Source: Eledone cirrhosa (Eukaryota). From it: a stretch of DNA of 64,000 nucleotides. Position 1 is the first letter of the stretch. Each line of letters begins with the position of its first letter. Both the position numbers and the translations under genes were made by a program. The notes beneath the pieces are model-generated. The model did no database searches and had not been told where the DNA came from. It saw nothing but the letters and a program-made list of their open reading frames with translations. The stretch is from contig OZ024759.1 of the NCBI GenBank assembly GCA_964016885.1, positions 18,848,001-18,912,000 of the forward strand, written 5' to 3'. Below, piece by piece: positions 696 through 39,429 of this stretch.

Positions 696-726
696 TATAT
701 AGTTATGTAATAAACAACATAAGGCA

Positions 727-794
727 ATTATTCCATTTACCAGTGGTTTCTTAAAAGCAAAAGATTTTGTTTTCAATCCTCAGAATGAAAAAAT
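727..794 (-). ncRNA. Type I hammerhead ribozyme motif (family B, minus-strand copy)
   Basis: Reverse complement of 861-928 with one stem II substitution; core intact. Confidence 0.75.
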
Positions 795-860
795 CCTGGT
801 CTGTTTATTGAATTTGGATTTAAAATTTTTTTTAAATCGAAATTCAATAAACAGACCAGG

Positions 861-928
861 ATTTTTTCATTCTGAGGATTGAAAGCAAAATCTTTTGCTT
901 TTAAGAAACCACTGGTAAATGGAATAAT
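861..928 (+). ncRNA. Type I hammerhead ribozyme motif (family B)
   Basis: TTTCATT-CTGAGGA(872-878)-TTGAAAGCAAAA/TC/TTTTGCTTTTAA-GAAA(905-908)-CCA C TGG-TA^AATGGAA; all three stems pair. Confidence 0.85.
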
Positions 929-1018
929 TGCCTTATGTCGTTTATTACATAACTATTAAGCTCTGTTACCTACATAGAGCACTCTTTTTTCCTGGACTTT
1001 TCCGGCGGAATTACTTTA

Positions 1019-1073
<55 letters not shown>

Positions 1074-22223: not shown

Positions 22224-22278
22224 CCAGGTTGTCTTTATGCGGGTATGTCAATATTTATAAAACAAAAAAACAAATTTG

Positions 22279-22344
22279 TATTTTATCTGATGAAAGCGCA
22301 CCAAAATTTGCCTTGGTTGCCCTTGAAATATATATAATAAAATA
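22279..22344 (+). ncRNA. Type I hammerhead ribozyme motif (family A, best copy)
   Basis: TATTTTAT-CTGATGA(22287-22293)-AAG C GCA CCAA..TTGG T TGC C CTT-GAAA-TATATA-TA^ATAAAATA; perfect 8-bp stem I. Confidence 0.85.
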
Positions 22345-22440
22345 ATTATGGTTTTATAAATATAGTTTCCATTTATTAGTATATATATATGTGTGTGAGT
22401 ATATACATATGCATATATGTATATGTATATATATATATGT

Positions 22441-22886
22441 GTTTTCACGGTATTTTTGACTAAAGGAATTGTAGCCTGATAACGGGGTTTAGAACCCTCA
22501 GATAAATGGAAAAAGATGTGTATTGACGTACATGGGAGTCGAACCCACATCTTTGGTTATCGCGACCATTGTGCTACCATTACACCAACACATTACCCAT
22601 CCCCTTCTATTCAAATTAGAAGCTACATTCTTAGCGAGTTTAAATGGCAAGTAAGTATGTTTTGAAACAGTGAGCAGGTTTGAAATTAGAAAATAGAATA
22701 GCTTTCACGGTATTTTTGACTAAAGGAATTTTAGCCTGATAAAGGGGTTTAGAACCCTCAGATAAATGGAAAAAGATGTGTATTGACGTACATTTTATCA
22801 GGCTAAAATTCCTTTAGTCAAAAATGCCGTGAAAGCTATTCTATTTTCTAATTTCAAACCTGCTCACTGTTTCAAAACATACTTAA
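22441..22886 (-). mobile_element. TA-embedded element with 260-bp tandem unit, terminal inversion and internal tRNA-like cassette
   Basis: Direct repeat 22443-22533 / 22703-22793; 22793-22885 is the reverse complement of ~22652-22743. Confidence 0.75.
22524..22596 (-). pseudogene. tRNA-derived sequence (A and B boxes; weak acceptor stem)
   Basis: TGGTGTAATGGTAGCAC..TGGT..ACCA..GTGGGTTCGACTCCCAT: D arm and T arm pair. Confidence 0.65.
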
Positions 22887-32151: not shown

Positions 32152-32292
32152 ATTGACCTGAGTCCTGGAGTGTTACCTTTATTTGTACTCAGGGATTTGT
32201 AGGGACAGACGGTGTATCTAAGGGCATTTCTTAACATCTGGAGCCCATTTCCTCTCCAAGTCTGAATACAGCAGATTTCTTCCAGAGAAGGG

Positions 32293-33326
32293 TATAGAGA
32301 GGGTAGGAATAGACGTAAGAAAGGTATAGAGAGGGTAGGAATAGACGTAAGAAAGGTATAGAGAGGGTAGGAATAGACGTAAGAAAGATATAGAGAGGGT
32401 AGGAATAGACGTAAGAAAGATATAGAGAGGGTAGGAATAGACGTAAGAAAGGTATAGAGAGGGTAGGAATAGACGTAAGAAAGGTATAGAGAGGGTAGGA
32501 ATAGACGTAAGAAAGATATAGAGAGGGTAGGAATAGACGTAAGAAAGATATAGAGAGGGTAGGAATAGACGTAAGAAAGATATAGAGAGGGTAGGAATAG
32601 ACGTAAGAAAGGTATAGAGAGGGTAGGAATAGACGTAAGAAAGGTATAGAGAGGGTAGGAATAGACGTAAGAAAGATATAGAGAGGGTAGGAATAGACGT
32701 AAGAAAGATATAGAGAGGGTAGGAATAGACGTAAGAAAGGTATAGAGAGGGTAGGAATAGACGTAAGAAAGATATAGAGAGGGTAGGAATAGACGTAAGA
32801 AGGGTATAGAGAGGGTAGGAATAGACGTAAGAAAGATATAGAGAGGGTAGGAATAGACGTAAGAAAGATATAGAGAGGGTAGGAATAGACGTAAGAAAGA
32901 TATAGAGAGGGTAGGAATAGACGTAAGAAAGATATAGAGAGGGTAGGAATAGACGTAAGAAAGGTATAGAGAGGGTAGGAATAGACGTAAGAAAGGTATA
33001 GAGAGGGTAGGAATAGACGTAAGAAAGATATAGAGAGGGTAGGAATAGACGTAAGAAAGATATAGAGAGGGTAGGAATAGACGTAAGAAAGGTATAGAGA
33101 GGGTAGGAATAGACGTAAGAAAGATATAGAGAGGGTAGGAATAGACGTAAGAAAGGTATAGAGAGGGTAGGAATAGACGTAAGAAAGATATAGAGAGGGT
33201 AGGAATAGACGTAAGAAAGGTATAGAGAGGGTAGGAATAGACGTAAGAAAGATATAGAGAGGGTAGGAATAGACGTAAGAAAGATATAGAGAGGGTAGGA
33301 ATAGACGTAAGAAAGATATAGAGAGG
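32293..33326. repeat. 32-bp minisatellite, 32 copies plus a partial
   Basis: Unit TATAGAGAGGGTAGGAATAGACGTAAGAAAG(G/A). Confidence 0.97.
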
Positions 33327-39374: not shown

Positions 39375-39429
39375 CATTTTATTATACATATTTCGGATGT
39401 ACAACAGTACGTCCTCATCAGACAAAATA
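39375..39429 (-). ncRNA. Type I hammerhead ribozyme motif (family E)
   Basis: TATTTTGT-CTGATGA-GGACGTAC TGTT GTACATCC-GAAA-TATGTA-TA^ATAAAATG on the minus strand. Confidence 0.88.

Follow-up and report, generated by a model that had tools for sequence, protein, structure and literature searches.

What kind of sequence would carry a hammerhead ribozyme (HHR) on each strand, the two set back to back in an almost perfect palindrome, and does such an arrangement do anything for its host? We addressed this question in a window of 64,000 nucleotides from the octopod Eledone cirrhosa (assembly GCA_964016885.1; contig OZ024759.1, positions 18,848,001 to 18,912,000 of the forward strand), in which all positions below are counted. 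Our reading, to which we assign a probability of roughly 0.9, is that the palindrome consists of two 3' ends, each 5'-truncated, of a Hydra-clade Penelope-like element (PLE), joined head to head within a (TA)n tract. One of the two ends is tailed, and the pair likely arose in one insertion and likely lacks a host function.

The inverted repeat is centred on the axis 827/828 (i + j = 1655). Its arms (699 to 825 and 830 to 956) are 127 bp each, so that the fold-back described in the original prediction was found, with arms longer than the approximately 117 bp given there. The arms pair at 124 of 127 positions (mismatches at 716/939, 770/885, and 816/839) around a loop of four T residues (826 to 829). 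The left arm is on the minus strand and constitutes the 3' end (pLTR) of the element with a short terminus and no tail; the right arm, on the plus strand, is the corresponding end of the same element and the same sub-lineage. The structure had been thought to stop at 956, whereas the right arm runs on as a family-wide, one-sided tail of about 64 nt (957 to 1020, plus strand) with a predicted hairpin at 960 to 980. On the outside, the short end enters a (TA)n target tract at 689 to 700, as short ends do in most copies, and the tail end is followed by a second (TA)n tract at 1022 to 1068. The head-to-head junction (821 to 834) lies in a self-complementary T-run/A-run site at which other copies also turn (L009, L032, L059/L060, and L123; overlap, 8 to 13 nt).

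A palindrome of this kind could be a fold-back artefact of assembly or library preparation, and the centre of the locus is indeed unspanned by any listed contig or read. We nevertheless give this explanation almost no credence, because each of the three differences between the arms is private relative to the family copies, because the structure recurs at many loci with varied junctions, and because sibling junctions are present in short-read contigs of one public sample (possibly the assembled sample), one of which matches the genomic junction C14:21636214. The private bases are 770, 839, and 939 in the arms, with a further one at 1005 in the tail. The arms also finish at two different, family-defined ends. 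The base differences seen among sequencing-run matches correspond to other DNA copies rather than to editing.

A motif scan located a type I hammerhead at 865 to 924 on the plus strand, with stem I at 865 to 871/918 to 924, the core CUGAGGA at 872 to 878, stem II at 879 to 889/894 to 904 (overall, 879 to 904), GAAA at 905 to 908, and stem III at 908 to 910/914 to 916 (palindromic helix III, 908 to 916). The CUGANGA and GAAA boxes, an NUH site, and helices I to III were thus all present, and the cut anticipated after 917 coincides with a GUA site. The minus-strand copy occupies 731 to 790 (core, 783 to 777; GAAA, 750 to 747; predicted cut after 738). The expectation of a complete HHR on each strand was borne out for the plus copy only: the private change at 770 places an A.C mismatch in stem II of the minus copy and weakens it, and the predicted energy of the active fold is -5.2 kcal/mol for the minus copy versus -11.9 kcal/mol for the plus copy. 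Stem II comprises 11 bp with a 4-nt loop; the 12 bp previously assigned to it would force a 2-nt loop. Both arms, like the common family haplotypes, have U-A at positions 10.1/11.1, where G-C is usual. The label "family B" attached to these HHRs was the original prediction's own.

The Rfam scan at gathering thresholds did not call a hammerhead in the window at this locus. The match is not a chance one, since the exact 55-nt ribozyme core occurs 447 times in the genome and its reversed control 0 times. The plus copy is identical to the commonest family haplotype (80 of 292 copies), and the core was intact in 270 of 283 scored family copies, many of which came from loci selected on that same core.

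These motifs belong to a large repeat family. The right arm retrieved 784 genome candidates, the best of which were 97 to 99% identical to it. Family copies have two alternative ends, one at the position matching 956, where they enter (TA)n, and the other about 64 nt further on, where they enter (TA)n or (CA)n; among 172 unique terminal-type matches, the tail was present in 90 and absent in 82. A pattern search of the genome for two cores set head to head 34 to 64 nt apart, a range that does not include the 82-nt core gap of the window's own palindrome, returned at least 67 loci with varied junctions. Inverted pairs exist at all sizes from <0.1 to about 8 kb, and by-eye inspection of the first 100 of the 447 core matches gave 13 head-to-head arrangements and 1 tail-to-tail arrangement. 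The palindrome is a retroelement stub, one of many, which the original prediction overlooked. Two sets of loci share the same insertion together with its flanks (C1:35989521/C1:34754238 [L059 and L060] and L150/L151) and are likely segmental or haplotype duplicates.

Longer copies connect the arm to a coding element. Upstream of the arm, they contain a microsatellite-rich untranslated region (UTR), then a second, internal hammerhead, and then a reverse transcriptase (RT)-like coding sequence. A protein search yielded 147 matches at 92 to 100% identity, many of them lying in uninterrupted frames of about 714 codons. We selected 13 stretches for their long open reading frames (ORFs) (L091 to L103). 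Their layout was arm, tail, about 120 nt, ORF, UTR, and arm, often preceded by an inverted truncated copy; the arm lay 3' of the ORF in 13 of 13 stretches, and in most the ORF start was preceded, at a distance of about 120 nt, by arm plus tail. One of these stretches (L098) has a small fold-back, like that of our locus, directly before a full ORF. Family stretches thus include both pLTRs from partial tandems and the inverted 5'-truncated copy, and the locus is an ordinary insertion of the element in its most reduced form. In full-length copies, the tail sequence comes after the 5' pLTR, about 120 nt ahead of the ORF; this link is drawn from the ORF-anchored stretches, and a pattern search for a tail continuing into the ORF gave (TA)n-ended copies among the matches listed. 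At 64 nt, the tail is longer than the 30 to 40 bp usually reported.

Within the tail, the hairpin (960 to 980 in the window) was compared across 119 family copies. Its stem is kept and the common variants fall in the loop, where two positions account for 41 and 29 changes, compared with 0 to 4 at stem positions; no compensatory pairs were seen in these 119 copies in a search that allowed only 6 substitutions.

The ORF product (710 amino acids) had 1,598 homologues. Pfam and PDB sequence searches with this ORF gave only weak, below-cutoff matches, which we discounted as noise, and called neither an RT nor a GIY-YIG domain. A protein model built from 76 aligned sequences had a mean pLDDT of 92, and its seven best structural matches were all telomerase RTs. 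A putative endonuclease region carries a VVY...YVG motif that we aligned by eye with rows of the Hydra supplement, and one homologue carries PF01541. The ORF further contains RWK, DKT (in place of DKG), and a CxCX5C linker (CSCRKPDEC), the features by which Craig et al. 2021 (PMC8557442) characterise the Hydra clade. Insertion into (TA)n and an HHR near the 3' end also fit this clade. On these sequence features, we classify the parent as a young, high-copy Hydra-clade PLE with a single ORF for an RT plus a putative GIY-YIG-type endonuclease. The Neptune clade, which the Cys linker had suggested, was dropped in favour of the Hydra clade on the published motif definition.

The internal hammerhead lies about 1.4 kb upstream of the terminal copy (e.g., L054, 7978 to 8074, and other full-length copies). 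It is likely noncleaving because it has GUG at the cut site, as did 38 of 38 copies filed as internal; our sorting into internal and terminal copies misfiled 47 copies whose cut site has a G and whose stem II is of the internal type. The internal copy looks like an older end that became fixed inside the 3' UTR.

The features of the locus that might suggest a nonautonomous retrozyme or a MITE are that it is short, noncoding, and ribozyme bearing and that its arms are inverted. We regard this explanation as exceedingly unlikely. In longer copies, the arm forms one continuous sequence with the 3' UTR and ORF, so that it reads as the stub of an autonomous element; tandem ribozyme units are absent, the two copies being on opposite strands; junction points vary by copy, with no single fixed unit; and the two ends are asymmetric, unlike terminal inverted repeats. 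The metazoan non-LTR retrozymes (bioRxiv 10.64898/2026.07.22.740005) are similar in having a type I HHR, a PLE pLTR origin, and no coding capacity. As described there, however, they are tandem units with HHRs on the same strand, unlike the inverted pair of element ends observed here.

Comparison with what is reported of Hydra-clade PLEs (PMC8557442) showed these shared features: a single ORF, the RWK, DKT, and CxCX5C marks, a C-terminal endonuclease (putative in our family), (TA)n targeting, a type I HHR near the 3' end, and an inverted 5'-truncated copy with a one-sided tail. The nearest family listed there, Hydra-1_Obim, targets (TA)n and has an HHR with an ACCA-N-UGGU helix III and without G-C at 10.1/11.1, as judged by eye to be the case here. 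The same by-eye comparison found many different residues and different HHR stems, so that ours is a distinct family. The family unit is also larger than in those PLEs, at about 4 kb versus under 3 kb, has a 3' UTR rich in microsatellites, and is set apart by a clear pLTR, partial tandems, an internal HHR with GUG, and a tail of about 64 nt.

The arrangement itself is already in print. Dual metazoan min-HHRs on opposite strands, 100 to 700 bp apart, have been ascribed to truncated PLEs (Cervera and de la Pena 2014, PMC4209133); an inverted 5'-truncated copy with a one-sided tail has been described for PLEs by Craig et al. 2021; and head-to-head palindromes with a tail on one inverted pLTR have been reported, with self-priming proposed as their origin (Arkhipova et al. 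2013, PMC3846280). The locus is thus an ordinary stub of a known retroelement class, and its value is indirect: the family counts bear on how PLEs make inverted repeats and one-sided tails. Our literature search found no study that counted the pairing of tailed and short ends (Arkhipova 2006 and Evgen'ev and Arkhipova 2005 may hold such counts) and no study of hammerhead palindromes in cephalopods. A study of Octopus vulgaris repeats (PMC13282606) names Penelope families among those recently active; its available text makes no mention of hammerheads.

We counted the end types of paired arms. Among 35 unique pairs within 400 nt, 34 had one tailed arm and one short arm; in the exception (L126), both ends had been replaced. 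These tight pairs came from tail-independent searches (24 pairs), tail-selected searches (7), and hand-picked stretches (4), and the set counts both L059 and L060, which look like one duplicated insertion; L136, L147, and L148 were dropped from the 15 head-to-head-pattern loci as their minus arms lacked an anchor. The rule held in 23 of the 24 pairs that were found without using the tail. For wider pairs, we took 40 contig-1 core matches with about 10 kb of upstream sequence, skipping tight pairs already counted. Of these 40 loci, 20 had an inverted partner end, which was of the opposite type in all 20 (including L188, whose partner is diverged and maybe unrelated, and L165, which repeats L129); for the other 20, no inverted partner end was found within about 9.5 kb. 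Diagnostic variants were common to both arms in 46 of 49 informative pairs (64 pairs in total), compared with 40% at random pairing, which indicates that the two arms share a single event of origin and a single source lineage.

The extent of the arms and the form of the junctions were scored in 34 tight pairs. The tailed arm reached further 5' in 7 pairs and the short-ended arm in 14 (L017, L048, and L120 among the latter look like later deletions), and the two were equal within 2 nt in 13. The short-ended arm was also the longer one in several multi-kilobase pairs (L051, L052, L053, and L056). Junctions had an overlap of at least 1 nt in 15 cases, were blunt in 3, and contained inserted bases in 16. 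The ribozyme cut site or helix I edge was not a main turning point: tailed arms extended 0 to 161 nt, with the edge at 40.

One explanation of such pairs is that a single cDNA (or an antisense template) folds back at a short self-complementary site and copies itself, after which the endonuclease trims the second arm at the short end. This is the kind of self-priming proposed for head-to-head PLE palindromes in PMC3846280. The 13 symmetric pairs, the 15 overlapping junctions, the sharing of sub-lineage between arms, and the turn of our locus at a self-complementary run are all consistent with it. The symmetric pairs would seem to be more numerous than expected from two cDNAs truncated independently of each other, and they fit fold-back or subsequent repair of a hairpin equally well. 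Fold-back of a tail-primed cDNA requires the tailed arm to be at least as long as the other, however, and cannot give a longer short-ended arm; this favours two primed ends, and the inserted bases at 16 of the 34 junctions likewise speak against fold-back. Because of the many symmetric pairs and the few likely deletions, fold-back stays alive as an explanation, though we consider it unlikely.

Our tentative preference, which we would put somewhat short of an even chance, is that the tail/short rule, the single sub-lineage, and the fact that either arm may be the longer together form the footprint of double-ended target-primed reverse transcription, in which a pair of RT subunits, one beginning on each side of the 64-nt tail, copy onto both ends of one (TA)n cut. 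The element's enzyme would cut both strands of (TA)n, and each DNA end would prime copying of the element RNA, with one start at 956 and the other at about 1020. Each copy would end prematurely, in this case about 40 nt upstream of the ribozyme, after which the two 3' ends would be joined at the self-complementary T/A run and then filled in. The hammerhead, which is the element's own pLTR motif, would be carried twice because the element end was copied twice. The order of these steps is inferred from genome copies. If this model is correct, head-to-head Penelope palindromes would be the normal product of two primed ends and not of self-priming, and this young family with many open ORFs would provide a ready test system for double-ended priming.

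Work on Poseidon PAc of Anolis reports that the tail is defined by two start sites of the RT, that cleavage and extension occur on both strands, and that a dimer is predicted (Frangieh et al. 2024, PMC11167929). PAc resembles our family in that its tail is the sequence downstream of the pLTR HHR, its copies have two fixed genomic ends, its targets are AT-rich, and its tail region has a stem-loop. It differs in belonging to another clade and in that its HHR overlaps the ORF start, whereas here the ORF begins about 220 nt after the cut site. In the available text of that work, the two starts are not paired with the two arms of one insertion. The PAc ribozyme is reported there to need protein and to be dispensable for insertion in vitro.

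The remaining explanation is that the locus acts as a two-headed switch in which self-cleavage competes with a long double-stranded RNA (dsRNA) and ADAR or Dicer acts on the hairpin for a host purpose. The original prediction was right that a read-through transcript would carry one ribozyme plus its antisense and form a long dsRNA; the competition it envisaged turned out to be one-sided in silico, with the hairpin ahead by about 88 kcal/mol. The predicted fold of 699 to 1020 has an energy of -208.9 kcal/mol, compared with -121.2 kcal/mol when the hammerhead is enforced, and the predicted probability of stems I to III within 699 to 935 was 0.000. In this head-to-head layout, transcription entering from either side reaches the antisense arm ahead of the sense ribozyme, and so the folding order also favours the hairpin. 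Read-through RNA is thus predicted to form a 125-bp hairpin that silences the ribozyme, which could form only in a transcript starting near the axis.

Even the isolated arm had a predicted active-fold probability of 0.01. Helix III, being palindromic, pairs better between copies than within one (predicted, -8.2 kcal/mol between two sense copies versus +0.4 kcal/mol inside one copy), and on this modelling the ribozyme likely depends on another copy in the sense orientation, something the palindrome lacks. Self-cleavage is accordingly predicted to be weak for the monomer. This agrees with what is reported for metazoan min-HHRs (PMC4209133), whose single motif gave no cleavage and whose dimers gave little. 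Min-HHRs share with our motif a long helix II, a dimer-suited palindromic helix III, and a location mostly on truncated PLEs; our motif departs from them in having a helix I of 7 bp, a helix II of 11 bp, and U-A in place of the conserved G10.1-C11.1.

In favour of a switch, both arms carry a hammerhead core, and the hairpin could in principle be unwound by editing. Tight palindromic repeats in the frog and Penelope in the lizard are reported to be hyper-edited, and hyper-editing in the octopus to be very high (PMC5625713); by analogy with the frog and lizard repeats, the read-through hairpin is a plausible ADAR substrate. We nonetheless consider a functional switch very unlikely. In addition to the predicted energies and the folding order, the left copy already has its stem II mismatch, and the at least 67 sibling palindromes have varied junctions. 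There were 0 Pfam matches among 93 ORFs in and beside the window that would point to a host exon near the locus, an intron still being possible. Since the hairpin is predicted to block folding of the motif, we regard the locus as a recent, likely neutral insertion that was probably left behind by transposition and is not a switch, and any editing or dicing of a read-through hairpin would be incidental. In this genome, one retroelement family seeds many near-perfect hairpin templates, which are plausible editing substrates if transcribed.

A second fold-back stub, with a different hammerhead family, occupies 340 to 694, directly to the left of the palindrome and sharing its (TA)n tract at 689 to 700. 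Its plus arm has the core CUGAUGA at 598 to 604, its minus arm is truncated (430 to 508), and it has a one-sided tail (340 to 430). The family is found again at many of the loci retrieved, frequently as inverted pairs in which one end is tailed; judged by its sequence, the stub resembles a MITE at first sight but looks like another product of the Penelope pattern. A single diverged copy of the same family, with an intact core and ending in (TA)n, is present at 22241 to 22390. At 39383 to 39421 (minus strand) lies a third type I hammerhead, unrelated to the others, whose stem II has a G-C at its base and whose helix III is palindromic. Elsewhere in the window, Rfam gave a weak tRNA match (36 bits; 22524 to 22594, minus strand), which is probably a tRNA-derived repeat, and positions 32286 to 33326 hold a very homogeneous 32-bp minisatellite (32.5 copies at 98%).
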